64,000 nucleotides of DNA from a candidate division TM6 bacterium UASB124 (GTDB lineage: Bacteria; Babelota; Babeliae; Babelales; RVW-14). The notes under the pieces were generated by a model. That model worked only from the letters and a program-made list of their open reading frames with translations. It made no database searches and was not told the origin of the DNA. The DNA is taken from positions 1,018 through 65,017 of the forward strand of contig CAMDFF010000004.1 of assembly GCA_945897315.1 (NCBI GenBank). The letters are read 5' to 3'. The position numbers and the translations under genes are program-made. This document shows positions 1-51,801 of this stretch, one piece after another. Position 1 is the first letter of the stretch; the number at the start of each line of letters is the position of its first letter.

Positions 1-270
1 AAGGGTTGCTGCCGATACAAAGCTCCTTAAGCTGCGAGCAATTAGAAAGACCTAAGACAGTTAGCAGAGGGCAGGCGTCGAAGTGGAGCTTCTCAAGCTG
101 TGGGCAGGGAGAAACGTCTAACGCAGTCAGTAAAGGGTTGTTGCCGGTAGAAAGCTTCTGAAGCCGTGGGCAATTGGAAAAGTCTAATGCCGTTAGCAGA
201 GGGCAGTAGTCGCAATCGAGCGTCTTAAGCTGCGGGCAATTAGAAACGTTTAAAGCCTTTAGCTGATGGT
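1..270 (-). repeat. Coding tandem repeats (11/22-aa LRR-like units; 132-bp DNA super-period)
   Basis: aagggttgctgcc at 1 recurs as aagggttgttgcc at about 134, and ttagcagagggcag at about 61 recurs at about 193. The translated units are LKALNVSNCPQ / LKTLDCDYCPL / LTALDFSNCPR / LQKLSTGNNPL and so on. Confidence 0.8.
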
Positions 271-1549
271 TCCTAAAGATTATAAGGTATCTCAGCTCGT
301 ATGAAATAATAGTTACGGCACCACATGATTCATCAATGGTCAACTTAGTTGGTTTTATAACGCTAAGCACAAAGTCAATAATTAATTGGGTAATTGCTTC
401 GCAACGAGGGAGTGCCTTGATGCTAGCAAAATTGAGTGTGTACTCATCAAAAAAACGCTCTTTAGTGATTATTTGATTAAGCCTAATATCGGTATCCATG
501 TTGCATGTATGAGGGAAACGGTGGTACCAAGCAAAGGAGAGCGCTATGCGATTTAATAAATCACCTTTATCGATTGTAGCGAGTAAGTCTGTGGCCTTAG
601 TTAGGAAGTATTGTGTGGGAGCGATTATTTCAAGCGCAGTCTTAGCATTGTCGAATGCTATAAGATATTGTGCATGATGCTGATCAATCAATGCGTCTAC
701 TAGTGGTTTCAGAATAGCTATTTTAGCAGCATCATTGGCTATAATTGCGTTGGTGAGTAGCTTCATGGCAATGGGCAGAGGAATGCCGTAAAAACCTTCC
801 GTTGAAAGAGAGATGTTATAAAAACCTTCCGTGTCAGGTTGCTGGCTGGTCTTAATAATAGGTTGAGCACAAAGCATTCTTTCATCATCAGTTAACTCAA
901 TACCACGAGAAATTCGAATTTTGGAAGCAATAGAACCAATGTTTTGCTGGAATGATTCTCCCCACTGTCTGCTTGTTTGCGCAAGTGCCAGCTGATCTGC
1001 TGCTGGTAAAAAGTGAGAAATTAAACAGCGTGCTTGATTGGGGAGTCTTTGTTCTGGAGATAGACGAATTCTAAGGTTTCGAGCCTTATTGTATGCAGCT
1101 ATGACTTGTTTTAGCTCCATGGCATCATCGCTGGTATCAGTTAAAAAAACGCTTCGCATTGCTAAAGTAATATTGTCTGCTAATACATCACAAGCATGCA
1201 GTCGTGCTTGACTAGCTATCTTGAGTACTTTCCCTGCACCATTTAATGCTTCAAGTTGTGCAGGAGTAATGAGTAATGGCTCACTTGGTATAGCATCAGC
1301 AGTAAGTACAGGAAATTGCTCGAGTAAGCTTTGTTGTGCTTTCTTGCAACGTAAAAAAATATCCTCGACTTTTGCCTGCGCTGGAGTTGTAGAAGGTGTA
1401 GAGCGTCTTGCACTGACAGGGGGGGCAGCAGAATATTCTCCTCCAGCACCGCCACATGCGGGTGCTTCTCCTGCGCTATGCAATGGCGCAAGCAAGCTAA
1501 GAGTAAGAAGCAAAACCGTTTGTGTTGCGACTGTTGTAAATCTGATCAA
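1..1549 (-). CDS. Secreted F-box-like / leucine-rich-repeat protein (partial, C-terminus runs off the window; TTG start)
   Basis: Absent from the ORF track because it is open at the window edge. My minus-strand translation starts at TTG 1549, with AAGGGG 6 nt upstream and an in-frame TGA just before. It gives the signal-like N-terminus (M)IRFTTVATQTVLLLTLSLLAPLHSA, the F-box-like stretch LPNQARCLISHFLPAADQLALAQTSRQW, and then repeated LxxL(D/N)xSxCPx units to the edge. Confidence 0.7.
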   Translation of the reverse strand, partial: MIRFTTVATQTVLLLTLSLLAPLHSAGEAPACGGAGGEYSAAPPVSARRSTPSTTPAQAKVEDIFLRCKKAQQSLLEQFPVLTADAIPSEPLLITPAQLEALNGAGKVLKIASQARLHACDVLADNITLAMRSVFLTDTSDDAMELKQVIAAYNKARNLRIRLSPEQRLPNQARCLISHFLPAADQLALAQTSRQWGESFQQNIGSIASKIRISRGIELTDDERMLCAQPIIKTSQQPDTEGFYNISLSTEGFYGIPLPIAMKLLTNAIIANDAAKIAILKPLVDALIDQHHAQYLIAFDNAKTALEIIAPTQYFLTKATDLLATIDKGDLLNRIALSFAWYHRFPHTCNMDTDIRLNQIITKERFFDEYTLNFASIKALPRCEAITQLIIDFVLSVIKPTKLTIDESCGAVTIISYELRYLIIFRNHQLKALNVSNCPQLKTLDCDYCPLLTALDFSNCPRLQKLSTGNNPLLTALDVSPCPQLEKLHFDACPLLTVLGLSNCSQLKELCIGSNP

Positions 1550-1945
1550 AAAATTCCCCTTGGGTAAAATGCATAAAAGTAGGTTTCAGTAGTATGGTAT
1601 TTCAGAGCCGATACATTACAATATGCTTAGTTGAATTACAAGCAATAATGCAAGAAAGATAACAGCCTGCTTTTTACCTAGTTTTATGCCCCGTGTAAAA
1701 GTAATTATTCAAAAACACATAGACCCTCTGGGAGTGTCGATTCAGAGGTCGATTTGAGTGTGTCCGGGGAAGGCGATTTCAGGGCGTTCTCAGCTGCCCG
1801 GAATGCTCTCCTGAGCGGTGTTTGCAGGGGGTAAAAGTTGTAAGTTTTTTTGGGAGATGTGGGATGCAATTGTTTTTGTTTGACTGATTCTGGGTAAAGG
1901 GGGATTGCCTGAGTAAGCGCTGGCTGGATAAGCTATTATACAATT

Positions 1946-1996
1946 AAAAAGAGAGCCCCGGCACTTCTTGGCTCGAAGCGGCGGGGCTCTCTTTTT
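1946..1996 (-). terminator. Rho-independent terminator (bidirectional shape) downstream of the ankyrin gene
   Basis: The stem pairs gagagccccg (1951-1960) with cggggctctc (1982-1991). It is flanked by an A5 run on one side and a T5 run on the other. Confidence 0.7.
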
Positions 1997-2018
1997 ACAT
2001 TACATCAAACGCGAGTAC

Positions 2019-3206
2019 TTACGTAAGCGACATAACCTTTTTAATTGTTTGCGCCTTGTCGATAAGATCCATTGCGGATTGGCCGTCTTTGCCTTTGAGA
2101 TGAGCATCTGAACCGGCTTCCATGAGCAGACGGAATGCTGCGACCATGTCACAATGTGCAGGATCAATCGTTGAAAAACGATGTGCCGCACACATCAAAG
2201 CGGTGTGGCCATGTTCGTTTTGTGTGTCAACACGTGCTCCAGCAGTAAGAAGAAGAGAAGTAAGCTTTTCAGGTCTAGTGTCTAAATGGTACTTATTTGA
2301 TTGATAAGCAGTGTAGACAGTCATTAGGGGTGTATTGCCATGCTTATTTGCAATGTTGGCGTCAGCGTTAGCATCAAGCAACAGGTGTATGATATCTGGC
2401 GCATAATTTGCTGTTGCAATGTTTAATGGTGTATCTCCATTGCTGTTAGTTGCGTTAACGTTAGCTCCTGCTTTCACAAGTGCTGAGATGATCTCAATGG
2501 GAGAATTTTTTTTTGCAGCATAGGTCAACAAGGTCTCTGCACCATTGGACGTAGTTTGGTTAACGTCAGCACCAGCAGCAAGTAATGCTTGAAATGTTTT
2601 ATTCCACATAACTAGAAAATCAGGATTATTAGTTTCATAACAAGAAAGATCGCCACAGAGCTCTTCTAGTGCTGAGTAGTCATTACTATTCTTTAGGTTA
2701 CCATTAGCACCTGCAGCAAGTAGCAACATAGCCGTTTCGTGTCGATTATATCGACAATTATAGATCAGCGCTGTATCTCCATAGTCGTTTTGATTATCAA
2801 TATGTGCACCAGCATCAAGCAAAATTTGAACAATTTCGTTCTCGCTTACAACGCTAGCATAATATGATTGAGCCATGAGTATTAATGCAGTATTTCCCTC
2901 ACAGGTTGCATTAACATCTGCCCCAGCTTCAATCAATACTTGTACGATTTTTTTATGCCCATTGCACGCAGCAGCAGACAATGAATTGTGAGTTATCGAA
3001 TAGCCGTGCCTTCTATAATGAGCATTTGGATTAGCACCAAGCGCTAAATACATGCGTACTTGATTTACATGACCATCTGTTGCTGCAATCACTAATAGAT
3101 CGCCAAGAGTGTCAGCAAGCATAGTGATTTTCGCTTGAAGAGGCACCAAGAAAACACTGAATACTAAACTAATAATCAGACTGGTTTTGAAACCACATTT
3201 TGTCAT
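2019..3206 (-). CDS. Secreted ankyrin-repeat protein
   Basis: Many ankyrin-type repeats are present (GANPNA.., GADVNAT.., GAHIDNQNDYGDTALI.., GANVNATNSNGDTPLNIA, DANADANIANKHGNTPLM). The likely start is MTKCGFKTSLIISLVFSVFLVPLQA at 3206, with AGGAGA upstream. The track ORF extends to 3257. Confidence 0.85.
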   Translation of the reverse strand: MTKCGFKTSLIISLVFSVFLVPLQAKITMLADTLGDLLVIAATDGHVNQVRMYLALGANPNAHYRRHGYSITHNSLSAAACNGHKKIVQVLIEAGADVNATCEGNTALILMAQSYYASVVSENEIVQILLDAGAHIDNQNDYGDTALIYNCRYNRHETAMLLLAAGANGNLKNSNDYSALEELCGDLSCYETNNPDFLVMWNKTFQALLAAGADVNQTTSNGAETLLTYAAKKNSPIEIISALVKAGANVNATNSNGDTPLNIATANYAPDIIHLLLDANADANIANKHGNTPLMTVYTAYQSNKYHLDTRPEKLTSLLLTAGARVDTQNEHGHTALMCAAHRFSTIDPAHCDMVAAFRLLMEAGSDAHLKGKDGQSAMDLIDKAQTIKKVMSLT

Positions 3207-3468
3207 GAGGCAAGTTCTCCTAAAAACGGATGAATGAGAATATAACAGCTCAATCATTGTAAACGTTTTAAGAGGCCATCACAAAGGGGTTTGCGGTTAT
3301 GCAGCTAGAAAGAAATTATGCGAATAAAATGCTGTTTGAAATCAATGATTTGATCTTAGCGTGGTAATTCCTGGTGTCTATTTTCCAGGGGGTGAAAATC
3401 GGTTTTGCCATCTGACTCAGCCTGTGCCTATGGACTAACCTAAAAAAGGGGCTCGAAATGTGTGTGTA

Positions 3469-25459: not shown

Positions 25460-25488
25460 GGGCTTCTAACTATTATCGTGTGATTTAT

Positions 25489-27252
25489 ATGAAGTTTTCT
25501 TATGTTGCAGAAATATTTAATCGTGTTGAGCAAGAGAGTGCACGTACCTCGATTACCGTAATATTGGCAGAGCTTTTTAGCAAGGCAGATGCTCATGAAG
25601 CAAGTGTCATTGCTTATTTTTCTCTTGGCTCGCTCAAGCCACCATATCTTGGTGCACAATTTAACCTAGCAGAAAAAAGTTTAATCAATATTATCGCACA
25701 GCTTTTGAATGTTGCTGTTGATATTGTAAAAAAAGAGCTTAAATTAGTCGGTGATTTAGGGTCTATTGTTGCTCAGTACTCATGGGGCATAGAGTCATCT
25801 GTTCTTTCATTGGTTGACGTAGAACGCAGTTTGCAACAGGTTCTTCTGATGAGCGGAACTGGTTCACAAGATATTCGTGAGCAAGCAGTGCTAAAACTAT
25901 TACAAGCTCTAGATCCAGTCTCAGCAAAATATGTTTTACGTATTATCGAAGGTAACTTGCGCCTTGGATTTTCTGATATGACCTTGCTTGATGCGTTTTC
26001 TTGGATGCAGACTGGCGATAAATCATTGCGAGCAGATTTAGAGCAATCATACAATGTTTCTGCTGATATTGGCCTAATTATTGGAACACTCAAGACAGAT
26101 GGCGTTGCAGGTATTCGTGCGATGGCCATTACTCCTGGTATTCCTATTCGCCCATCTGCAGCAGAACGTTTACCAGATGCTGCTGCGATTATTAAAAAAT
26201 TAGGGACGTGTGTTGCGCAGCCAAAGCTTGATGGGTTTCGCTTGCAGGTTCATCTGGATAATAGATCGCAAGAAAAAATTGTCCGTTTTTTCTCACGCAA
26301 TTTACTCGACATGTCAGCGATGTTTCCTGACTTAATTGCATCCTTGCATGAGCTGCAGGTTGATCAACTGATTGTTGAAGGAGAGGCGATTTGTATTGAT
26401 CCGCAGACAGGTAATTTTTTACCATTTCAAGAAACAGTAAAGCGTAAACGTAAGCATAATATTGCCCAAGTAGCAGAAGATTTTCCTCTTAAATTATATT
26501 TATTTGATGTGCTATTTTTAGATGGGCAGTCACTACTGACAAAAACCCATGAAGAGCGCCGTTCTATAATGCTTCAGTTGTGTGCTAATAAAGCGTTGCA
26601 GGAGCATGGCATTATCAAAGTGATTGATGAACACGTTATGCATGATGCAGAAACGCTTTATAACTACTTTGAAGAGACGGTGACAATGGGGCTTGAGGGC
26701 CTGGTAGTTAAACGTCCTGACGCTGTGTATCAGCCTGGTAAGCGTAATTTTAACTGGATTAAATTGAAGCGAGAAGAGACAGGATCACTTGATGATACGC
26801 TCGACTGCGTTGTTTTGGGATACTACGCTGGTCAAGGTAAGCGTGCACAATTTGGTATTGGCGCATTGCTTGTTGGTGTGTATCACCCGGGGAATGACGA
26901 ATTTCAGACTGTTGCAAAAATTGGTACAGGGTTTACTGATGCAGAATGGCGTGAAGTAAAAATAACCTGTGATGCGCTTAAAGTAATGCATCAACCGCAT
27001 AATGTGGTGTGCAAAAAAGAGCTTTATCCTGATGTGTGGGTTGATCCGTCAGTTGTCTGTATGATTCGTGCAGATGAAATTACGCTGTCGCCATCGCATA
27101 CTGCTCATGCAACAACAGAAAAACTTGGCTATGCTTTGCGGTTTCCACGGTTTATGGGCTATCGTCCTGATAAATCAGCAACAGCTGCTACGACATCACT
27201 GGAAGTTCAGAGTCTCTACCACCTGCAATTTGAGAAAAAGTCTAAAAAATAA
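25489..27252 (+). CDS. ATP-dependent DNA ligase (Lig1/archaeal-like, with N-terminal DNA-binding domain)
   Basis: Has the adenylation motif I in AQPKLDGFRLQVH, then EGEAICID, LYLFDVLFLDG and LEGLVVKRPDAVYQPGKRNFNWIKLK. The protein is about 587 aa with a long N-terminal domain. The start is taken at the ATG at 25489. Confidence 0.9.
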   Translation: MKFSYVAEIFNRVEQESARTSITVILAELFSKADAHEASVIAYFSLGSLKPPYLGAQFNLAEKSLINIIAQLLNVAVDIVKKELKLVGDLGSIVAQYSWGIESSVLSLVDVERSLQQVLLMSGTGSQDIREQAVLKLLQALDPVSAKYVLRIIEGNLRLGFSDMTLLDAFSWMQTGDKSLRADLEQSYNVSADIGLIIGTLKTDGVAGIRAMAITPGIPIRPSAAERLPDAAAIIKKLGTCVAQPKLDGFRLQVHLDNRSQEKIVRFFSRNLLDMSAMFPDLIASLHELQVDQLIVEGEAICIDPQTGNFLPFQETVKRKRKHNIAQVAEDFPLKLYLFDVLFLDGQSLLTKTHEERRSIMLQLCANKALQEHGIIKVIDEHVMHDAETLYNYFEETVTMGLEGLVVKRPDAVYQPGKRNFNWIKLKREETGSLDDTLDCVVLGYYAGQGKRAQFGIGALLVGVYHPGNDEFQTVAKIGTGFTDAEWREVKITCDALKVMHQPHNVVCKKELYPDVWVDPSVVCMIRADEITLSPSHTAHATTEKLGYALRFPRFMGYRPDKSATAATTSLEVQSLYHLQFEKKSKK

Positions 27253-37425: not shown

Positions 37426-38667
37426 TTATTCGTCAGAATGAGGACTCTTTTTTTTAGTCGGGGCATAGAACTTTGTGAAAAGCTCGGGAATATTTTGCCA
37501 CGAAATAAAGTGTGGTCCGGTAGGTGAAATAGCATCCGGTCCCGTGTAAATCACATAGCTTTGATCTAGGGGGTGTCCTGTTAGATCATGCCAAAATGAG
37601 ATCACATCGGTCATATTGTTTCTAGCAACGTTGGCTGATTTAATTTCTAGGGGGACCAGTGTTCCTGCCAGGTCAACAATCAAATCAATCTCATGCTTTT
37701 GTTCATCGCACCAAAAATACAGAGCGGGCCTTGTCGAGCTGCTCGTGTAGTACCATTTTGATGACTCTGTGATAACAAAATTTTCAAACAAGGCACCACG
37801 TATTTTATGGTTTGCTAATGCTTCTGGTGAGTTTATACCCAATAGACTACAGATAATACCTGTATCAGTGAAATACAACTTGGGGCTTTTTGTAAGCTGT
37901 TTATTAAAGTTTTCATAATGTGGTGATAGCGTATAAATGATGTAGCAACTGGAAAGTAATGAAAGCCACTGGTTTGCTGTTTTAACATCAATTTTTGCGT
38001 CTGCAGCGAGTGTGTTTACATTAAGAACTTGTCCGCAGCGACCAGCGCATAGCTTTAAAAACTTAAGAAATTGTGCTTCGTCTGGTAATTTTTGAAGCGT
38101 TTTGATGTCTCGTTGGATGTAGGTATCAATATAATCCAGATAAAACTGTTCTGTTGATAAATTTGTATCGGCATGCAAGCGCGGAAAACTGCCCTTAAAC
38201 ATGAGTTCGTCAATATTGTCTGGTAGTATCTTTGATTGTTTTAGTTCATTGATTGACGGGGGTAAAATGGTAAAAAGCACTACCCGGCCAGCGAGTGATT
38301 CTGTTACATTTGCCATCATCAAATAATTTTGCGAACCCGTTAAAATAATCTGCCCCTGGCTTCCTGTCTCATCAACATAAATTTTAATAGCAGGTAGTAT
38401 TCTTGGGCATAATTGAAACTCATCAATGATGATACCCGGAGCGGTGGCAAGATTGTCTGCTATAAATGCTTCGGGGTCAGCATTAATACTGTTTGCGGTT
38501 GCTTCCCTATCACATAAAAAATATTTATACGTTGGAAAACACTGTTTTGCTAGTGTTGTTTTTCCTGCTTGTCGTGGGCCACGAATACAGGTTACTGGCA
38601 TGAGAGGTGCGTATGATTTTATAAATTCAGTTTTGTCGCGATTAATGAACACAATGATCTCTTTCAA
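37426..38667 (-). CDS. AAA-type ATPase with DUF4143-like C-terminal domain
   Basis: Has Walker A GPRQAGKTTLAKQ and Walker B IIIDEFQ. The length and layout are typical of the widespread AAA_14+DUF4143 family. Confidence 0.7.
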   Translation of the reverse strand: MKEIIVFINRDKTEFIKSYAPLMPVTCIRGPRQAGKTTLAKQCFPTYKYFLCDREATANSINADPEAFIADNLATAPGIIIDEFQLCPRILPAIKIYVDETGSQGQIILTGSQNYLMMANVTESLAGRVVLFTILPPSINELKQSKILPDNIDELMFKGSFPRLHADTNLSTEQFYLDYIDTYIQRDIKTLQKLPDEAQFLKFLKLCAGRCGQVLNVNTLAADAKIDVKTANQWLSLLSSCYIIYTLSPHYENFNKQLTKSPKLYFTDTGIICSLLGINSPEALANHKIRGALFENFVITESSKWYYTSSSTRPALYFWCDEQKHEIDLIVDLAGTLVPLEIKSANVARNNMTDVISFWHDLTGHPLDQSYVIYTGPDAISPTGPHFISWQNIPELFTKFYAPTKKKSPHSDE

Positions 38668-42343: not shown

Positions 42344-45300
42344 ATGGGTGTTTCTATGAAAACATTTTTTATTTTAGTTGTTCTGATCGCGGGGCTTACA
42401 GCATCGAGCGTTGGCTTATTGGCCAGTGCGCGGCGTGCTCCAGTGGCTGCCGTTTCTGCTGCTGACCTTGAGGTACAGTTGCGTTCTTGTCGGAGTGCAG
42501 CAGATGCTCGCGCAATTTTAGTTGATGCTAACAAAATTGTGAGTGCAGGAGGAGCGGATTATGCAGTGGCAAAAAAGGTTTCTCAGTCTGCGAGCGCGGC
42601 AATTGTACGGTTTGAAGCAGAAGAGCGCGAAGCAAAGATAAGGGCTGAGCAGCAAGTTGCTCGAGCACGAGAAGAAGTTGTTCGAGCACGAGAAGAAGCA
42701 GCGGCAGCGCAAGAAGCACGGCGTGCGGGTGAAGCCAAGATTGCGGCGGCGGGAGGTACGGTGGAAGCGCTTAGTGCTGAAGTTGCTCGATTAACGGCTG
42801 ATCTTCAAGCAGGAGCGGTTGTTAATATGAGATTGCAAGCGCATTGTGAGCAGCTGCGTGCTGATGCGGTTCGTGAAGCGGCAGCAAAAGCTACAGAGCT
42901 TGCTGCGCAGGTAGCCAAAAATTCTGGTTTGGCAGAACAAATTCGTGCTGTGCAAAATGAATTACAGCAAGTGCGGTTTCTCATGGCTCAGAAAGAACAA
43001 CAAGGTGCAGCGCTCCTTCAGAAAAACCAACAGCAGCGCGATGTGAATGCGCGGCTTCAACGAGAAATAGCTCAGGTTAGTGCTCAAAATGAAGCAGCAG
43101 AGGCTCGCGTCACAGCGGCAGAAGCAGAAAAAAATCAAGAATGTGCTCGCGTGCAAGCGGAAAAAGATGAAGCAGTGCAGGAAGCAGCGAGACTAGGTTC
43201 AGTTGCTGAAGCGCGGATTGCAGCTATACAGCAAGCCGTAGCTGCAGTGACTGTGAATTTACAAGCGTCACAGGCAGCCCTTGCTGAGCAGGCTGCGAGC
43301 AAAGCTGTGATTGAACGTGAAAATGCTAGAGTCAAAGCCGATCTTACTCGTGTGCGTGGAGCTCAAGATGAAATTGCTGCAGAAGCAGAGGCTACTGTTA
43401 TAGCTGCACAAAGAGAAAAAGATGAAGAATGTGCTCGAGCACGAGAAGAAGCAGCGTTATCACAAGCAGCACTGCGTGCGGGTGAAGCCAGGCTTGCGGA
43501 GGCAGGAGGTACCGTGGAAGCGCTTCGTGCTGAGGTTTCCGCGCAGGTAGCACAAAATTCTCGCTTGGCTGCTGAGATTCAGGCTGTGCAAAATAAATTA
43601 CAGCAAGTGGAGCGTCAAATGGCTCAGAAAGAACAGCAACGTGCAGTGCTGCTTCAGGAAAACCAACAGCAGTGCGATGTGAATGCGCGGCTTCAACAAG
43701 AAATAGGTCAGGTTCAGGCCGAAAATGCAGCAGCGATTGCTCGTGCTCAAGCAGAAAAAGAGAGAGCGCAGCAGGAGGCAGAGGCTCGTGTTGCAGCGGC
43801 AGAAGAAGAACAAGTTCGAGAATGTGCTGCTTTACGAACTGAAAAAGAAAGTGTGACAAGGCAAGCACAGGCTGATGTTGCTGTTGCTCAGGCACGGGCG
43901 CTCCAATTGGAAGAAGGGAACGCTACAGGTCGCCGGAAATTTGAGGACGAGAATCGTATATTGCAGCAGCAAGTTGATGCTCACAATACAGAATTGCAAG
44001 CACTGAGAGGTCAGCTTGCTGCTGAACAGGCACAACAAGCCCAAATTGCTGCAGAAGCAGAGGCTAGTGTTATAGCTGCACAAAGAGAAAAAGATGAAGA
44101 AGTTGTTCGAGCACGAGAAGAAGCAGCGGCAGCGCAAGAAGCACTGCGTGCGGGTGACGCCAGGGTTGCGGCGGGGGTAGATGCAGCGGGAGCGCTTAGT
44201 GCTGAAGTTACTCGATTAACGGCTGATCTTCAAGCAGGAGCGGCTGTGAATGTGAGATTGCAAAAATCTTGTGAGTCGCAGCGTGCTGATGCGGTTCGTG
44301 AAGCGGCAGTAAAAGCTACAGAGCTTGCTGCGCAGGTAGCCCAAAATTCTGGTTTGGCTACTCAGATTCAGGATGTGCAAAATGAATTACAGCAGATGCA
44401 GCGTTACATGGCTGAGAAAGAGAGAGAGCAGCAGGAAGCAGAGCGTCAGGCTGCCACAATCAAAACGCAACATGAGCAAGCAGTTGCGGTAGTGACTGCC
44501 GAGTTGGAAGCATCACAGGCGGCGCTTGCTCAGCAGGCTGCGAGCAAAGCTGTGATTGAAGGTGAAATTGCTAGCGTCAACGCAGAGCTTGATCGTGTGC
44601 GTGCAGCTCAAGATGAAATTACTGTACAAACAGAGGCTCGTGTGCGTGCAGTAGAAGCAGAAAAATCTCAAGAATCTGCTCGCCTTCAACGAGAAATAGC
44701 TCAGGTTCGTGCCGAAAATGCAGCAGCGATTGTTGCTGCTCAAGCGGAAAAAGAGCTAGCAGCGCAGGAAGCAGCGAGTCACATTGCAGAGGTGCAAGCA
44801 CGATGTGAAGAAGCAGTGAGCGCGGTTAGAGCCGAGCTAGAAGCATCACGGGCGGCGCTTGCTGCGCAGCGTCAGAAAAATGGCGAAATTTCTGCACAAT
44901 TAGAAAGTCGAGAGCAGGATATTCAGCGTGCTATGTTCACAATTCAATCACTTGTACATTCACCTCATACAGAAGATCCTGAAAGAACTTGGGATTTTGG
45001 TCAGCTGCAGAAACAAAATACAGAGTTAAAGGCAGAAAATACAGTGCTAAAGCATGCGAAATGTAAAGTGTGTGAGCAGGCAGCTCAGGAAACAGACGGA
45101 GAATGGGAGCGCTTGATGGCAACTAGTCTTGATGATGTAGCGGGCGGTCCCGCGTGTAGTTCTGCTGCTGCGGGGGGAATGTCTTCAATAACTGAAACTG
45201 TGCTTGCGATAGAGCGAGAGAAGGACGATTTAGTACTTCGTTGTGAGGCTTTACGTGAAGATAACCAACGATTAAGACAAGCGTATGAAGAAATGCAAGT

Positions 45301-45493
45301 GCGCAATAGTGCCTTAGAGCAACAATATCTACGTTTGGCAGAAGAGTGTTATAAAATTTCTCAGGAATTAACGATTCTAGATCGTGTGGCAGATGAGGCG
45401 GTAAAACCAGAAGCATTGTTAGCAAAGAAAAGCACATTTGGAGCGTTGCTCGCTAGAGTGCGAGCATTAGGACAAGCGTTTCCTAAGCCGTAA
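42344..45493 (+). CDS. Secreted giant coiled-coil protein with kb-scale internal repeats
   Basis: The signal is MKTFFILVVLIAGLTASSVGLLASA. The 1049-aa protein is dominated by A, E, Q and R heptad-like sequence. Modules such as REEAAAAQEA(L/R)RAGEA and TADLQAGA.VN.RLQ..CE..RADAVREAA.KATELAAQVA.NSGLA recur two or three times. Confidence 0.7.
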   Translation: MGVSMKTFFILVVLIAGLTASSVGLLASARRAPVAAVSAADLEVQLRSCRSAADARAILVDANKIVSAGGADYAVAKKVSQSASAAIVRFEAEEREAKIRAEQQVARAREEVVRAREEAAAAQEARRAGEAKIAAAGGTVEALSAEVARLTADLQAGAVVNMRLQAHCEQLRADAVREAAAKATELAAQVAKNSGLAEQIRAVQNELQQVRFLMAQKEQQGAALLQKNQQQRDVNARLQREIAQVSAQNEAAEARVTAAEAEKNQECARVQAEKDEAVQEAARLGSVAEARIAAIQQAVAAVTVNLQASQAALAEQAASKAVIERENARVKADLTRVRGAQDEIAAEAEATVIAAQREKDEECARAREEAALSQAALRAGEARLAEAGGTVEALRAEVSAQVAQNSRLAAEIQAVQNKLQQVERQMAQKEQQRAVLLQENQQQCDVNARLQQEIGQVQAENAAAIARAQAEKERAQQEAEARVAAAEEEQVRECAALRTEKESVTRQAQADVAVAQARALQLEEGNATGRRKFEDENRILQQQVDAHNTELQALRGQLAAEQAQQAQIAAEAEASVIAAQREKDEEVVRAREEAAAAQEALRAGDARVAAGVDAAGALSAEVTRLTADLQAGAAVNVRLQKSCESQRADAVREAAVKATELAAQVAQNSGLATQIQDVQNELQQMQRYMAEKEREQQEAERQAATIKTQHEQAVAVVTAELEASQAALAQQAASKAVIEGEIASVNAELDRVRAAQDEITVQTEARVRAVEAEKSQESARLQREIAQVRAENAAAIVAAQAEKELAAQEAASHIAEVQARCEEAVSAVRAELEASRAALAAQRQKNGEISAQLESREQDIQRAMFTIQSLVHSPHTEDPERTWDFGQLQKQNTELKAENTVLKHAKCKVCEQAAQETDGEWERLMATSLDDVAGGPACSSAAAGGMSSITETVLAIEREKDDLVLRCEALREDNQRLRQAYEEMQVRNSALEQQYLRLAEECYKISQELTILDRVADEAVKPEALLAKKSTFGALLARVRALGQAFPKP

Positions 45494-45527
45494 GTAGTAC
45501 AACGATTTTATTATAACAAGGCTATCG

Positions 45528-47126
45528 ATGAAGACAAAAAATATAGTTTTTATCTTATTCGCGTGTAGCGCAGCAACACTTGCTGCAGGGAGCGCAACAG
45601 GCCGATCATTTTTCCAGCCACGGTTGCTATGGGCTGAGCAGATGCTGACATTGCATAATGGCACGGAATACGATTGTATGCCTCCAGCGAGCAGCGGCTT
45701 TAGCTTTAATGCTGCTGCGGGCTTTCAAGCGTCAACGCATGACAGCAAATTTGCTAGCTACTTCTTGCCGAATGGCAAAAATGATTTAGTTGTGAAAGGG
45801 GCTAATGCTCCGGGTCCGCGTGATATCTCTGCGATGTGGTTGCAAATTGTTGGTGACAACACTGTTGCTCAGCCTGCAGCGCTTTTTGTGCCAAGTCCAG
45901 ATAAAATTTTTGATTATGAGCGGGCTGCAATGCAATGGATCAATGAATACTCCAGCGTTATTAGCTTGCGACCACGCTTTGAATCATCCGGGGTGCTGAC
46001 ACACTTATCGTACTGTGCAAAGATCAATCGCATGCCGTGCCAGCTGACAGTTGGAGTGCCTGTGCTGCACGTGCGTAATAATATGCAGCTTTGTGAAACT
46101 GATGTGCAAAATGGTTTTACCAAGAGAAGTGATGTTAGTTCATTGCTAATTGAGCCCACAAGCATAGAGCTATTACAAGAAGTTCAACCTCAGTATTCAC
46201 TGTCTGCTATCGAAGCTTTTAATAATCCTAACAAGCGCTTTGCCAAGATCAGCCAGGGAGCTCTTGAAAAACGTGGCCTGGGCGATGTGAGCCTTGACCT
46301 TGCTGTTCGTCCTGTCTCGTCTGTAACCATAGGGCTGCGTGGTGAGTTGCCAACGGCATCTAAGGGGACCGCAGAATATCTTTTTGAGCCGCTGCTGGGT
46401 AGCAATGGTCACGGGACACTGGGAGCCTATGCACAGATGCGAGAAGCGTTGTGGTCTTGTGATCAAGGCACACTGTTTTTGAAAGCACAGCTGCAGTACC
46501 AAGCACAGTTTGCTGGCAACCAGTTGCGTACGTTTGACCTTACTGCTGCTGGCCAGTGGAGCAGATATCTTTTATTAATTGATGCAGCCAATAACCCAAA
46601 AAATGCTGACTCTGGTGTGAATTTTTTAACGCAATCGGCACACGTGAGCGCTCGGCAAGAGGGACTCGGTGGTCTTAGCCTAGAGCTGGAACACAAAGGC
46701 TTTTTGGCATCAGCCGGATACTCATTGTTTGCGCGAGAAAAAGAACGTGTCTCTGTGCGTACGCAGTTGCCGCAAAATCTTTTTATTGTGGGGCAGCTGG
46801 CATCAAATAACAGCGGAAAAAGAAATATTTCTGCTGGTGAAAAAAACAGCTCGATTGGTAATCATATTCCTGTTGGGCACAGTGCGTTTGTTGATCCCTT
46901 AGCCCAAGCTAACGCAGGCCTTGCATTGACCACAGCCGACCTTGATGTGCAGTCTGCAAGCATGCCAAAATATTTTTCGCATACCGTTCACGCGTCGCTT
47001 GGCTACGCTGGCCGAGTGCGCCAGCAAGAGGTGCATTGTAATCTGGGTGGCCGCTATGAAATGTTGCGCTATGGGCATAACTACAATGTGTACAGTCTCT
47101 TTGCGGGGTTAGAAATTAAGATTTAG
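45528..47126 (+). CDS. Putative outer-membrane (beta-barrel) protein
   Basis: Has the signal MKTKNIVFILFACSAATLAAGSA and beta-strand-like alternation throughout. The C-terminal strand is NVYSLFAGLEIKI. I recognise no family. Confidence 0.35.
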   Translation: MKTKNIVFILFACSAATLAAGSATGRSFFQPRLLWAEQMLTLHNGTEYDCMPPASSGFSFNAAAGFQASTHDSKFASYFLPNGKNDLVVKGANAPGPRDISAMWLQIVGDNTVAQPAALFVPSPDKIFDYERAAMQWINEYSSVISLRPRFESSGVLTHLSYCAKINRMPCQLTVGVPVLHVRNNMQLCETDVQNGFTKRSDVSSLLIEPTSIELLQEVQPQYSLSAIEAFNNPNKRFAKISQGALEKRGLGDVSLDLAVRPVSSVTIGLRGELPTASKGTAEYLFEPLLGSNGHGTLGAYAQMREALWSCDQGTLFLKAQLQYQAQFAGNQLRTFDLTAAGQWSRYLLLIDAANNPKNADSGVNFLTQSAHVSARQEGLGGLSLELEHKGFLASAGYSLFAREKERVSVRTQLPQNLFIVGQLASNNSGKRNISAGEKNSSIGNHIPVGHSAFVDPLAQANAGLALTTADLDVQSASMPKYFSHTVHASLGYAGRVRQQEVHCNLGGRYEMLRYGHNYNVYSLFAGLEIKI

Positions 47127-47383: not shown

Positions 47384-49741
47384 TTACTTATTATTCATCG
47401 CTTTGATTTGCTCGCGTAGTGCAGCAAGCTCTTGCTCAAGTGAGCCAACGCGTTTGTCTTGACGTTGATACTCATTCAAGAGTAAAGCAGGGAGCAAGTG
47501 GTAGCGAACGGTTTCAGCTTGATGCTCTTTGTTAACAATAACTAGATTTGGCATGATCTCTTGTACTTCTTCTGCAATCAAACCGTATTGCGTAACGTGT
47601 GAGTCATCGCCTTTATAAACAAAGCTTACGGGACGTAGCTTGAGCAGATCGGCAGATATGTTGCCAAGGTCTTTAATGTCGTCTTTGTAACGAGCAGATG
47701 ATGCAAGGGTGCCAAGGTTGCCGTTAGAGTCAATTAATACTGCTGAAGCAGTTTCAACATCGGATGTTGTTTTGTTGTAGATACCGGCAATATAACATGC
47801 TGCTTGTGAAGTACCAATACGCGTTGTGCTGCTTTCACTGCTGGTTGCTGCGTTGCTATTGATGTAAATATTGCTCGACCCTGAGGTAAGGGTACCACCG
47901 GCGCCATATCCAAGGCAAATGTTGCTGTTGCCTGATCTGAGCGATGGCCCTGCTTCTGCGCCAAGAATGACGTTGTTATCGCCAGAGGTAATTGCATCGC
48001 CAGCATTGAGTCCAACCAGTGTGTTATCATTTGCGCTGCCATTAAAATTGGCGCCTGCGCCTTTACCAAAGACAACGTTACTGTTGACATCAGCAGCGAG
48101 AACTCTTCCTGTAACTGAAACATCAGCAGAAAAATTTCCGCCACCAGGTACGAGTATGCGGCCTAAGGTAGAAGTACCAGTAACGTTGAGATCGCCATTG
48201 ATATATGCATCATCATTCATGGTTGTTACGCCAGCGATGTAGGCTGTACCTGCAATAGACAAGTTACCATCGAGTTCACCATAGGCATGGGTTGCAATAT
48301 CGGCATAAACATTGAGGTCAGATTCCATCGTTGTTTCACCAGAGATGAGCACAACGCCTGATGAGTGCAAGCTGCCAACATTGGTTGTGCCTGTGATGGT
48401 AGTATCGCCTGTAATGTTTGTGTCACCGTTAATATTTGCGTGGCCAGCAATTTGTGCGCCACCAGCTGTGACGGTGATGCCTGCTCCAAAGGTACTGCTG
48501 CCGGTAACGCAGAGGTTGCCACCAATATTTGTATCATTTATTACGGTAAGGCCTGTTCCTGCGCCAGAGAGTGTTGCGTCGCCAGAAATATTCATGACGC
48601 CTGATGAGTGCAAGCTGCCAACATTGGTTGTGCCTGTAATATTTGTATCGCCGGTAATATTTGCATGGCCAGCAATGTGTGCACCACCGGTAGTAATTGT
48701 GATGCCGTTACCAAATGTGGCAGATTGTGAAACGTCTAAGTTTCCTGTGATAGAAGCATTGTCATCGATGGTTGTGTACCCAGCGATGTAGGCTGTGCCA
48801 GCAATGGATAAGTTGCCATTGAGTTCGCCGTGAGCATAGGTAGCAATGTTGCCATACACATCAAGGTCGTTGTCCATGGTTGTTACGCCAGAAATAAGCA
48901 CAACGCCTGATGAGTGCAAGCTGCCAACATGGACGGTACCTGTGGTGCTAAAGTCACCAGTAACTGATGAATCACCAGTGATATGTGCCCCGCCGGTAGT
49001 CACCGTTAAGCCACCATCACCACCGATTAAAGCAGATCCTGTTGTGGTGAAATTTCCATTAAGTTGCTGGTTGCCATTGATTGTTGTATTGCCATTGATG
49101 GTTGTTTCGCCCGTGAGCGTAGGAGAGCCGAGTAGGTTTCCTGTAACGTTTCCGATGAGATCTGCTGTGATGATGTGTGCTGCAAAGTCGCCATTAAGGT
49201 CGCGTCTAACAATGAGCCCAGGAGAATTTGTTGGAACACCACTGATCGCAGTGAGTGCTGAAGCTGTAAGATTGCCAACACCAACGGTATTTGCGGCAAT
49301 TTTATCGCCAGTGACAGATCCTGCGGCGATTTTTACGTTAGTTACTGCTCCGTCTGCAAGGCGTATTGTATCGATTGCTTGAGCAATAACATTGTAACGA
49401 CGAATAGCATCAACGCCGATAAGTGTGTTGACGAGTGGAAGTAAGGTACGTGTTGTTTCGTCTACAGCATCAATAAATTCGCTTGCAGGGATATCACGAT
49501 GCTTATTATAAATGCGTTCGAGTACGTTTCTAAATGCTTCAGGCAAGGCGATGTTGTGGTTGTGAATAAGCTGTGCAACTTCAATGAGCGTTACAGCGTC
49601 AGCATCGCTGAGTCTATGCGTGTCTTCTGCCCGTTGTTCTCTAGCTTCAGGCGTAAGCTGTAGGGCTGTAGGTAGAACTTGATGCGCCGAAAGCGAGAGC
49701 ATCAACGTAAGTTTTAATAAGTGGTTTATACTCGTAGACAT
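47384..49741 (-). CDS. Secreted tail-fibre-like beta-helix repeat protein with C-terminal S74-type intramolecular chaperone (autoproteolytic) domain - fibre A
   Basis: The signal-like N-terminus is LLKLTLMLSLSAHQ. It has a fibre-type IADGAVTNVKIAAGSVTGDKIA..VRRDLNGDFAAHIITADLIGNVTGN, then G/T/N-rich repeats of about 100 aa. The C-terminal region reads SSARYKDDIKDLG..LRPVSFVYK..QYGLIAEEVQEIMPNLV..VRYHLLPALLLNE, followed by a terminal coiled coil. Confidence 0.8.
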   Translation of the reverse strand: MSTSINHLLKLTLMLSLSAHQVLPTALQLTPEAREQRAEDTHRLSDADAVTLIEVAQLIHNHNIALPEAFRNVLERIYNKHRDIPASEFIDAVDETTRTLLPLVNTLIGVDAIRRYNVIAQAIDTIRLADGAVTNVKIAAGSVTGDKIAANTVGVGNLTASALTAISGVPTNSPGLIVRRDLNGDFAAHIITADLIGNVTGNLLGSPTLTGETTINGNTTINGNQQLNGNFTTTGSALIGGDGGLTVTTGGAHITGDSSVTGDFSTTGTVHVGSLHSSGVVLISGVTTMDNDLDVYGNIATYAHGELNGNLSIAGTAYIAGYTTIDDNASITGNLDVSQSATFGNGITITTGGAHIAGHANITGDTNITGTTNVGSLHSSGVMNISGDATLSGAGTGLTVINDTNIGGNLCVTGSSTFGAGITVTAGGAQIAGHANINGDTNITGDTTITGTTNVGSLHSSGVVLISGETTMESDLNVYADIATHAYGELDGNLSIAGTAYIAGVTTMNDDAYINGDLNVTGTSTLGRILVPGGGNFSADVSVTGRVLAADVNSNVVFGKGAGANFNGSANDNTLVGLNAGDAITSGDNNVILGAEAGPSLRSGNSNICLGYGAGGTLTSGSSNIYINSNAATSSESSTTRIGTSQAACYIAGIYNKTTSDVETASAVLIDSNGNLGTLASSARYKDDIKDLGNISADLLKLRPVSFVYKGDDSHVTQYGLIAEEVQEIMPNLVIVNKEHQAETVRYHLLPALLLNEYQRQDKRVGSLEQELAALREQIKAMNNK

Positions 49742-49878: not shown

Positions 49879-51801
49879 TTAAGCGGTTGGCTCTGGTGCA
49901 ATACCCAAAGCAGCTTCGATTTTATCTAGTCGGCTTAGAATCGAATCAAATGTTGTTGCTTGTTGTTCGACCATACAAAGACGCTTCTCTTGGGCAAGAA
50001 CTTCATTGATGAGCAACGGTGTAAACAGCTCATAGCGAATTGCATCTGGTCTGTTTTCTTTGTCAAAAACAACAGTGTGAGGTAGAAGATCAGCTACTTC
50101 TTCAGCAACAAGGCCAAATTGTAAACGTTTTTGAGGATCTTGTTTGTACGTAAATGTAACAGGGCGTAACTGTTTAAATGCATCAGCTTGGCTGCCTACA
50201 TCTTTAATATCGTCTTTATAGCGACGGGATGATGCAAAACCACTGACGGTGCCTAATTCGCCTCCAGGAGTAATTGCGACGTTTGCGAAATCTATACCTA
50301 AAAAATGTCCAAAACCACCAATCATGTTTCCTGCAACTCCTGAAAAATTAACGCTACCAGGGACAGAAAGATTTGCGATATGCAAAGTGCCATCAACAGT
50401 TAGATCATTGCGAAATGTAGAATTACCGTAAATATCCGATGATCCAACGGGTAGATATAAATTACCTGTTGGTAGGGTTAGGTTGCCAGCAATGTAGCAT
50501 GCTGTGTGGGTACCCGTGGTGCCTAGGCGAGTTGTTTGTGATTCTTGGTGAGCGCCAACGTTGCCAATATAAATAGTATTGTTTTCGCTACCTGCCAGTG
50601 ACGATCCTGACTGGCACCCGAGGGCAATATTGCTTGCACCGGTGCGAAGATTTTGTAGCGCTCGTGACCCAACAGCTGTATTGTCATAACCCGTTGTTCT
50701 AATGAGCGCTTGGAATCCTACAGCGGCATTGTTGTTGCCAGTAAGATTGGCAGCAAGAGAGCCTTGGCCAATGGCGGTATTTTGTTGTCCTGCGGTGTTG
50801 CCACTGAGTGCAGTTGTGCCAATAGCTGTATTGTTTATCCCCGTGGTATTGCTGAACATCGATTTGTAACCAATAGCGGTATTATTGCTGCCTGAACTAT
50901 TGGAGTAAAGATTTTTAAACCCGATAGCAACGTTGCTGACCCCACTGTTGTTGTTGTACATTGCTGCGTAGCCAAGAGCCGTATTCTCATGGCCAGTATT
51001 GTTGTTGTACATTGTTGTGTAGCCGACAGCAGTATTATTGTTACCTGTCGAGGTGCTGGCCATTGCTTGTGAGCCAAAAGCGGTATTGCTGTCTCCAGCA
51101 TTGTTAGCAAGAGCACTGTGTCCCATCGCAGTATTGTCGTTGCCTGAGGTATTGTTTAAGAGTGCTTGGTATCCGGTAGCGCTGTTGCGATCGCCAGATG
51201 TATTGCTACTGAGTGCTTGTACGCCAGAAGCCGTATTTTCGTCTCCAATGGTATTGCTGTTGAGTGCCTGATAGCCAAGCCCCGTATTTGCTTTGCCAAT
51301 AGTAGTAGATTGCCCTGTGCTAGCGCCAATAAAGGTATTGTTTGCCGCGCTTGGCAGGAATGATTCAGCCGTATATTCATTGCCAAAAGCAGCATTGTTA
51401 TTATTGTCAACAAACTCATTTACCGTTAAGGAATACTTGAATTTTTGTTGGGCTGGTACATGGTACAAACTCAAAGCTTGCAGGGATTTGACAAGCGCAC
51501 TTTTTTGCTCGCTGTCTGGCAATGGTGCAATGATACCGTGCGCATCTTTAACGCCTGCTACTAAATCTTCTGCCCTGATTGTTCGGTGTTCAATAAGCGC
51601 TTCAAATATGTGTTTAAGAGGTGGTGGTAACTCCATCTGTTTGGCATCACAAATGTGTGCCACTGCCATGAGTGTTGCAATATCGGCATCGTCTAAAACA
51701 GCCGATGATTCATCACGTGTTTGCATTGCATCTGGTGTGGCACTTATGGGGACGCATGCAAAAAGCATGGTGACAAATAAATAATATAGTGTTGGAAACA
51801 T
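49879..51801 (-). CDS. Secreted tail-fibre-like repeat protein with C-terminal S74-type intramolecular chaperone domain - fibre B
   Basis: The signal-like N-terminus is LFVTMLFACVPISA. It has 17-aa NTAxGxxALxxNTxGxx repeats (51-bp DNA period). The C-terminal region reads SSRRYKDDIKDVGSQADAFKQLRPVTFTYKQDPQKRLQFGLVAEEVADLLPHTVV. AGGAG lies upstream. Confidence 0.8.
   Translation of the reverse strand: MFPTLYYLFVTMLFACVPISATPDAMQTRDESSAVLDDADIATLMAVAHICDAKQMELPPPLKHIFEALIEHRTIRAEDLVAGVKDAHGIIAPLPDSEQKSALVKSLQALSLYHVPAQQKFKYSLTVNEFVDNNNNAAFGNEYTAESFLPSAANNTFIGASTGQSTTIGKANTGLGYQALNSNTIGDENTASGVQALSSNTSGDRNSATGYQALLNNTSGNDNTAMGHSALANNAGDSNTAFGSQAMASTSTGNNNTAVGYTTMYNNNTGHENTALGYAAMYNNNSGVSNVAIGFKNLYSNSSGSNNTAIGYKSMFSNTTGINNTAIGTTALSGNTAGQQNTAIGQGSLAANLTGNNNAAVGFQALIRTTGYDNTAVGSRALQNLRTGASNIALGCQSGSSLAGSENNTIYIGNVGAHQESQTTRLGTTGTHTACYIAGNLTLPTGNLYLPVGSSDIYGNSTFRNDLTVDGTLHIANLSVPGSVNFSGVAGNMIGGFGHFLGIDFANVAITPGGELGTVSGFASSRRYKDDIKDVGSQADAFKQLRPVTFTYKQDPQKRLQFGLVAEEVADLLPHTVVFDKENRPDAIRYELFTPLLINEVLAQEKRLCMVEQQATTFDSILSRLDKIEAALGIAPEPTA

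Follow-up and report, generated by a model that had tools for sequence, protein, structure and literature searches.

A Sec-type leader, a divergent F-box-like motif and bacterial-type leucine-rich repeats in a candidate effector of a Dependentiae bacterium

A stretch of 64,000 nucleotides from the candidate division TM6 bacterium UASB124 (assembly GCA_945897315.1, contig CAMDFF010000004.1, positions 1,018 to 65,017 of the forward strand; hereafter the window) was analyzed with a focus on the gene that crosses its left edge. This gene encodes P0001, a protein in which a predicted signal peptide precedes a motif resembling the F-box of eukaryotic ubiquitin ligases and a solenoid of leucine-rich repeats (LRRs). 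LepA encoded in the window shares 69–77% identity with LepA of Candidatus Dependentiae/TM6 and about 55% with that of other phyla. Dependentiae are obligate intracellular associates of protists (PMC4776705, PMC6561590, PMC4378268).

The open reading frame (ORF) occupies positions 1–1549 of the minus strand and runs for 516 codons without a stop to the left edge of the window, which carries codons 1–516 of a complete gene of 680. Its start codon, TTG (1549–1547), is the first canonical start past an in-frame TGA (1588–1586) located 39 nt upstream. Public gene calls place the start at the same position, and their complete product, P0001 (680 amino acids, aa), is 100% identical to the window translation. 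Contig L001, taken from an independent Logan assembly of run ERR3719148, agrees with window positions 1–1883 at 100% identity and supplies the missing C-terminus. The target is a real gene coding for P0001. An initial annotation, made from the window alone, had described an untracked edge ORF with a TTG start, and the open frame, the upstream TGA, a Shine-Dalgarno-like AAGGGGA and the identical public calls bear it out; the leftward extension proposed there recovered the full product of 680 aa, C-terminus included. The ORF was missing from the six-frame track for the sole reason that it runs off the window edge. An alternative start lacking the leader was rejected in view of the in-frame stop, the Shine-Dalgarno-like element and the conservation of the leader in paralogs. 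The features of the gene are given below with their evidence in brackets; structural confidence is the predicted local distance difference test (pLDDT) of AlphaFold2 (AF2) models.

1-1549, minus strand: coding sequence of P0001, codons 1-516 of 680 (open frame, public gene calls, Logan contig L001)
1555-1561, minus strand: Shine-Dalgarno-like AAGGGGA, 5 nt upstream of the TTG start (direct sequence reading)
1472-1549, minus strand: predicted Sec-type signal peptide, residues 1-26, reading MIRFTTVATQ, then TVLLLTLSLLAPL, then HSA with cleavage before G (hydrophobicity profile, conservation in paralogs)
1385-1471, minus strand: Gly/Ala/Pro/Ser-rich disordered linker, residues 27-55, including a C7 run (AF2 pLDDT <50 for residues 1-55)
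1070-1384, minus strand: helical module A, residues 56-160, common to P0011, P0012 and P0014 (HMMER and alignments)
923-1054, minus strand: F-box-like motif, residues 166-209, with LP at 169-170 and W196 (Pfam, hhalign, family consensus, PDB profile; AF2 confidence low)
275-922, minus strand: helical module B, residues 210-425, core ALSFAWYHRFP … ITQLIIDFVL (conserved in nine family members)
2-262, minus strand: first 8 of about 20 eleven-residue half-units, forming about 10 nested 22-residue LRRs, residues 430-516 (phase table)

The peptide LPNQARCLISHFLPAADQLALAQTSRQW, residues 169–196 of P0001, runs from the Leu-Pro pair to the Trp of the F-box pattern. L169-P170, I177, F180-L181, D185 and L187/L189 align without gaps with FBXW7, Skp2 and AnkB, and AF2 places three short helices in the motif (171–178, 183–191 and 196–209), the last with a pLDDT of about 66–78 in a model of the N-terminal region. 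Several results obtained with the single protein weigh against an F-box. P0001 scored 16.9 bits (E 0.005) against Pfam F-box-like (PF12937; cutoff 24.3) and 16.6 bits (E 0.008) against F-box (PF00646; cutoff 20.5), and both matches span only profile positions 3–32 of 43–47, leaving helix 3 unmatched; the Pfam-aligned core is limited to residues 168–197 (window 959–1048). A phmmer search of the PDB with the 61-residue motif found no F-box, in a setting where a consensus F-box query retrieved 30 F-box chains, and the N-terminal 394 residues gave no meaningful match in the PDB either. Model confidence over the motif (residues 157–198) was below 50 in the full-length AF2 model and 44–78 in the N-terminal one, where helices 2 and 3 reached 52–78, and Foldseek returned no F-box or other significant neighbour for the N-terminal region. 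Finally, when the six-frame ORFs of the window and loci were all scanned with a home-made hidden Markov model (HMM) of seven F-box sequences, P0001 received 4.8 bits and did not rank first, a failure attributed to the narrowness of the model. The sub-threshold Pfam scores and the absence of an F-box from the phmmer results place P0001, taken alone, in the twilight zone. Such scores, the empty single-sequence PDB search and the lack of a fold match would be consistent with a resemblance arisen by chance in a Leu-rich helical segment, P0001 then being an LRR protein of unknown role.

Relatives of P0001 were sought with HMMER, residues 27–420 serving as the query in an exhaustive search of 1.84 billion representatives. 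Twelve other proteins were retrieved at E ≤0.001, of which 11 are credible relatives. All family members looked up are singleton clusters, and several stem from the sequencing run of P0001 or from one ENA assembly; the family members are therefore paralogs or close-lineage homologs. No close relatives of P0001 were found in 185,579 species-representative genomes, no relatives among JGI metagenome contigs scanned twice with family alignments, and no paralogs elsewhere in the 64-kb window; sequence relatives of P0001 were not detected outside a few metagenomic samples.

At the level of this family, by contrast with the single sequence, the resemblance to F-boxes was specific. Seven genuine F-box sequences of solved structures were taken from PDB search outputs, aligned and compared by hhalign with the motif alignment of six family members. 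The match had a probability of 90%, a P value of 1.4e-6 and a score of 31.3 over 40 columns in register, about 12 standard deviations (s.d.) above the scores of 200 column shuffles (8.2 ± 1.9, maximum 15.4). Without P0001 the score was 24.7 (P 5.8e-5). When a sliding window was moved along the whole family alignment, scores of 26–31 were reached only where it covered residues 163–218, and the rest gave 11 or less. Five eukaryotic F-boxes, chosen independently of the PDB profile result described below, yielded a score of 23.6, or 16.7 without P0001, against a shuffle maximum of 12.7. The consensus of the family motif HMM matched PF00646 with 21.2 bits (E 2.7e-4), above the cutoff of 20.5, and its remaining Pfam matches, F-box-like and F-box_4, also belong to the F-box clan, no other families being matched; with a consensus built without P0001, F-box was again the top Pfam match (E 0.004). 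Among all 177,635 PDB sequences, the family motif profile produced three matches in total. The best was the F-box of Legionella AnkB (5k35), weak (E 0.31) and in register, and the third was the F-box of FBXW7 (E 1.9), also in register, so that F-boxes account for two of the three.

The profile-profile match with its controls, the consensus and the PDB profile together indicate that the motif descends from an F-box. A chance resemblance is highly improbable in view of the shuffle, leave-one-out, sliding-window and independent-template controls, which all favour a specific match, of the consensus that exceeds the Pfam F-box cutoff and hits the F-box clan only, and of the share of F-boxes among the PDB profile matches. 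Homology between the P0001 motif and the F-box is well supported at the level of the family profile, not of the single sequence, and by profile evidence alone P0001 is placed as a divergent member of the F-box superfamily. The F-box claimed by the initial annotation thus stands as regards the pattern peptide and a homology visible through the family, whereas P0001 itself remains under both Pfam cutoffs; in the Pfam scan proposed there, only the family consensus exceeded the PF00646 cutoff.

Descent from an F-box is not the same as binding to Skp1. Among the six aligned members, Leu-Pro and Trp are found in P0001 only, the signature being absent from the other five, and none of the other family members has a Pfam F-box match of its own at E ≤1. 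P0001 could accordingly be a secreted LRR effector that acts by binding a host target through its repeats and in which the F-box-derived helices persist as a structural remnant no longer able to bind Skp1. The unaligned helix 3 and the low model confidence over the motif fit this possibility, as does the precedent of Legionella, in which two of five predicted F-box proteins, PpgA and Lpg2525, showed no SKP1 interaction (PMC5770618), so that an F-box prediction is no guarantee of function. On the other hand, P0001 is precisely the member that retains both LP and W, and AnkB binds Skp1 although it too lacks the Trp; the motif core SSFL.A.D..aLA.TSK is kept across the family, which suggests selection; and the genome encodes further mimics of the ubiquitin system. 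Loss of Skp1 binding is, on balance, possible but rather unlikely.

The initial annotation had counted at least eight Cys/Pro leucine-rich units in P0001, and these were confirmed. Eight in-phase 11-residue units of the form LxxLxxSxCPx lie within the window, and full-length P0001 contains about 20 such half-units, thirteen of them consecutive and in phase. They combine into a 22-residue repeat with exact 11+11 nesting, in which LTALD(L/F/V)SNCPx alternates with LxxLxxxxNPx/CPL. Pfam LRR_4 matches the full protein with E 1.3e-13, and LRR_6 does so weakly (E 0.0045). In the AF2 model the solenoid has one strand per 11 residues, with pLDDT values of 80–93. Foldseek ranked Listeria InlJ first among PDB structures, matching its Cys-ladder LRR domain (3bz5) with E 7.7e-11 and 27% identity across 298 columns; further internalins, SDS22 and LRRC8 came next, and the 50 best fold matches contained neither Skp2 nor an FBXL structure. 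The sequence relatives that share only the LRRs are bacterial. The repeats are true bacterial-type LRRs of the InlJ/IRREKO class. The FBXL/Skp2 architecture proposed in the initial annotation was, in this respect, not upheld: the repeats are of the nested 22-residue type and not of the 26-residue cysteine-containing (CC) type, and about 220 residues of module B separate the end of the motif (residue 209) from the first repeat (residue 430). Because of this LRR type and spacing, P0001 is better described as an analogue of a receptor of SCF (Skp1-Cul1-Rbx1) ligases built with bacterial-type LRRs than as a copied FBXL gene, and the idea that a eukaryotic FBXL gene had been acquired whole was rejected.

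The similarity to InlJ raises the question of an extracellular role. P0001 might be exported by the Sec system to act as an internalin-like adhesin or invasin at the cell surface or outside the cell, the Cys-ladder LRRs serving host attachment or entry and the F-box resemblance being irrelevant. Besides its best structural match, a Listeria surface protein, the predicted signal peptide, a weak NCBIfam InlJ match and the bacterial surface-type proteins among the LRR-only relatives are in keeping with such a role. It is nevertheless improbable, as domain scans (Pfam, NCBIfam) showed no anchoring or outer-membrane domain, F-box relatives have no known role outside the eukaryotic cytosol, sister proteins with a matching leader carry RING-like and ankyrin domains, and the leader-bearing eukaryote-like proteins of the phylum have been read as host-directed (PMC4378268, PMC6561590).

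The leader itself has an n-region with one basic residue (R3) and an h-region of 13 residues with a mean Kyte-Doolittle value of 2.2. Small residues are expected at positions −1 and −3 of a cleavage site; at the site predicted here these positions hold Ala and His, respectively. P0010, P0012 and other paralogs have the leader in conserved form; their sites are of the LDA type, with cleavage before Ala. Signal peptides are present on 44% of all coding sequences and 78% of ankyrin proteins of Chromulinavorax (PMC6561590), and on 79 of 126 ankyrin proteins of Babela massiliensis, which were read as secreted into the amoeba (PMC4378268). Within the window, the adjacent ankyrin gene has a similar leader, as do a RING protein and a RING-like/ankyrin protein, and the N-terminus of a USP-type hydrolase is hydrophobic. 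A leader on eukaryote-like proteins is the norm in Dependentiae, not an oddity; the Sec-like N-terminus noticed in the initial annotation is therefore present and kept in paralogs, but the figures for the phylum and the window neighbours contradict its description as unusual. The C7 run highlighted there as a possible slippage site is likewise located at 1419–1425, where it codes for AAPP within the linker. Phase variation at this tract was rejected, since G/C runs of at least 7 occur in the 64-kb window at chance frequency (2 observed versus 2.9 ± 1.7 in shuffles) and the tract is unchanged in the second (Logan) assembly.

The family is built of modules in the order of the conserved leader, the disordered linker, module A, the F-box-like motif, module B, the repeats and a C-terminal cap helix, VAxNRARIAAE. 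Module A is modeled by AF2 as helices with pLDDT values of 57–90 and has no match in Pfam or the PDB. Module B, with the family core ALCFAW..FP…AQLIIDFVLA, is modeled with higher confidence (pLDDT 85–96), shows no structural neighbour in the PDB (all E >1) and, in the model, leads into the repeat solenoid, for which it would act as an N-terminal cap. A different layout is found in P0014 (ENA ERZ27296333), which is related to P0001 over residues 47–179: a P0001-type leader and module A are followed by a RING-like Cys/His cluster, with weak zf-ANAPC11 and zf-RING_2 matches, and by about 20 ankyrin repeats. This layout suggests shuffling of modules between F-box-like/LRR and RING/ankyrin designs. 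As judged from sequence, P0001 appears to belong to a small, rare, lineage-specific modular family in which leader and module A precede either F-box-like/LRR or RING-like/ankyrin parts.

The C-termini of these proteins show a further common trait. In paralogs the cap helix is followed by an Ala/Glu-rich tail, and Ala/Pro/Glu-rich tails end many of the proteins P0009–P0019 as well as the window protein encoded at 55953–57191; most finish in Glu and two family members in Gln. P0001 retains the cap helix without an Ala/Pro/Glu tail. Such a tail might serve these proteins as a common signal for C-terminal sorting.

Taken together, the features of P0001 are most likely those of a putative effector that hijacks host ubiquitin ligases. 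Its mode of action may be pictured as follows. The predicted signal peptide, a proposal based on the conserved leader, would take P0001 out of the bacterial cytoplasm, and the protein would then enter the host by the route used for the leader-bearing eukaryote-like proteins of the phylum, for which type II secretion, with components conserved in TM6 (PMC4776705), or outer-membrane vesicles (PMC6561590) have been proposed. Once inside, the divergent F-box (residues 166–209) would dock on host Skp1, module B would serve as a rigid helical connector and cap between F-box and repeats, and the approximately ten nested 22-residue Cys-ladder LRRs would hold a host protein, leading to its ubiquitination by the host SCF ligase or, alternatively, to sequestration of Skp1. 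As a whole, this sequence of Sec export, onward delivery, Skp1 docking and LRR-mediated presentation of a target for SCF ubiquitination is given about an even chance of describing the role of P0001. Two further points count against it: unlike in Skp2, about 220 residues separate the motif from the repeats, and the route from periplasm to host cytosol is conjectural.

The surroundings of the gene bear on this proposal. The window contains housekeeping genes for ArgRS, LepA, SecD, FtsW, an LpxA-like protein, a heptosyltransferase and an M16 peptidase, together with the following genes for eukaryote-like and other proteins.

2019-3257: leader-bearing ankyrin protein
16513-17415, minus strand: 300-aa zf-RING_2 protein (31.5 bits, exceeding the Pfam cutoff), with a signal-like leader and, at the C-terminus, a hydrophobic helix
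21059-22651, minus strand: 530-aa UCH/USP-type hydrolase (38.1 bits, above cutoff)
55953-57191, minus strand: 412-aa leader-bearing protein with a RING-like Cys cluster, ankyrin repeats and an Ala/Pro/Glu tail
37426-38667 and 63275-63976, minus strand: AAA_14/DUF4143 and AAA-ATPase_like/PDDEXK_9 genes, also found in locus L083 and on the P0014 contig

Babela massiliensis has been described as having secreted C19 hydrolases along with an F-box and a RING protein (PMC4378268), and TM6 genomes as having conserved type II secretion components and F-box/LRR domains (PMC4776705). The RING, USP and ankyrin proteins of the window match the Babela combination, which raises the prior for an F-box relative acting on the host ubiquitin system. 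The effector theme of amoeba-associated bacteria evoked in the initial annotation is in line with these reports of F-box, RING and deubiquitinase mimics in a protist-associated phylum. NCBIfam Dot/Icm Ank models match the neighbouring ankyrin gene only, with scores far under their cutoffs.

Other observations were made in the window. Directly past the stop of the ankyrin gene, a long GC-rich hairpin with a T-run (AGAGAGCCCCG…CGGGGCTCTCTTTTT; 1950–2005, minus strand) is a likely terminator, missed by a simple terminator scan because of its long loop; between it and the target gene lies a gene-free leader of 470 nt. Four large paralogs of 451–1206 aa are encoded on the minus strand (47384–49741, 49879–51801, 52067–55687 and 61662–63017), each with a C-terminal Peptidase_S74 domain. 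Peptidase_S74 is the intramolecular chaperone of endosialidase or tail-fibre type, and the paralogs have the appearance of clustered fibre- or spike-like proteins. Two ORFan genes of 1049 and 532 aa on the plus strand (42344–47126) match no Pfam family and form a patch with a G+C content of 0.48–0.50, versus about 0.42 elsewhere, and a positive AT skew; this patch may be foreign DNA. The AAA_14/DUF4143 and AAA-ATPase_like/PDDEXK_9 genes adjoin family members on three contigs and may be mobile or defence-type elements marking variable regions. The plus strand at 25480–27252 encodes an ATP-dependent DNA ligase with the three domains (DNA_ligase_A_N/M/C) of the archaeal/eukaryotic type, here in a genome that is bacterial.

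F-box effectors of bacteria serve as a paradigm of molecular mimicry, and nearly all of those studied depend on injection by a type III or a type IV system. For effectors of this kind, Dependentiae appear to have no established dedicated injection system. Since known F-box effectors are mostly injected and Dependentiae place Sec leaders on the majority of their eukaryote-like proteins, a member that binds Skp1 would be informative on delivery; if P0001 proves to be one, it would offer a handle on effector delivery and on the use of host ubiquitin by abundant, poorly known parasites. Moreover, as the P0001 family is visible at the profile level only, the F-box content of the phylum is under-counted at standard Pfam thresholds. 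A tentative and rather doubtful extension would be that this Dependentiae lineage possesses a combinatorial toolkit of E3-ligase mimics, in which the leader and module A are joined to swappable ligase-recruiting modules and swappable target-binding repeats and reach the host without type III or IV secretion, modules A and B being new folds for delivery or positioning. The recruiting modules may comprise the divergent F-box of P0001 and the RING-like fingers of P0014 and of the protein at 55953–57191, and the repeats may be nested Cys-ladder LRRs or ankyrins. P0001 itself is a new, rare, lineage-specific variant among known bacterial F-box/LRR effector candidates and introduces no new principle.

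By analogy, the closest counterpart of P0001 appears to be the NEX1 family of Neochlamydia (PMC4209131), followed by GALA/RipG of Ralstonia and AnkB of Legionella. NEX1, compared by its description, is likewise a lineage-specific expanded family in a protist symbiont, with an N-terminal domain of F-box or F-box-like type in certain members and a RING/U-box in others, a region of unknown fold and C-terminal LRRs; hijacking of the host SCF was proposed for it, as here. The differences are that NEX1 proteins bear type III secretion signals, unlike P0001 with its Sec leader, that their conserved spacer has about 50 aa versus about 220 aa in P0001, and that their F-box is readily detected whereas that of P0001 is sub-threshold; no NEX1 members were among the matches of the exhaustive search with residues 27–420. 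The GALA/RipG proteins of Ralstonia solanacearum (PMC2244805, PMC3263339) also combine a bacterial F-box with LRRs and mimic SCF substrate receptors, but their LRRs are 24-residue CC-type repeats of plant origin that adjoin the F-box, unlike the nested 22-residue repeats set apart from the motif in P0001, and they are delivered into plants by type III secretion and not provided with a Sec-type leader. AnkB of Legionella pneumophila (5k35; PMC5770618), the F-box of which is the best, though weak, PDB match of the family motif profile (E 0.31), is an amoeba-adapted effector that binds SKP1 and Cullin 1 and, like most P0001 family members, lacks the canonical Trp. In AnkB, however, the F-box is at the extreme N-terminus, ankyrin repeats absent from P0001 follow, and the protein is a Dot/Icm substrate. 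Within Dependentiae, Babela massiliensis (PMC4378268) has F-box, RING and secreted C19 (UCH/USP) proteins and many leader-bearing ankyrin proteins, as in the window; its description mentions neither modules A and B nor nested LRRs.

FBXL proteins (Skp2, FBXL2, FBXL5) resemble P0001 in an F-box N-terminal to an LRR solenoid and in a Cys at position 9 of the highly conserved segment of the repeat. Their repeats, however, are of about 26 residues, of the CC type and directly after the F-box, two features that P0001 lacks, so that the resemblance is an architectural analogy and not membership. As for the repeats, Listeria InlJ (3bz5) and the IRREKO class (PMC2946307) share with P0001 short bacterial LRRs in which Cys takes the Asn position, a nested 10/11-residue LxxLxLxx(N/C)x periodicity and strands on both faces; InlJ differs in being a Gram-positive surface protein with 21-residue repeats, whereas P0001 has 11+11 = 22 residues, a Cys-Pro/Asn-Pro signature and the F-box-like motif. 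P0001 is therefore set apart from FBXL, GALA and AnkB by their defining features, and shares those of the InlJ/IRREKO LRR class.

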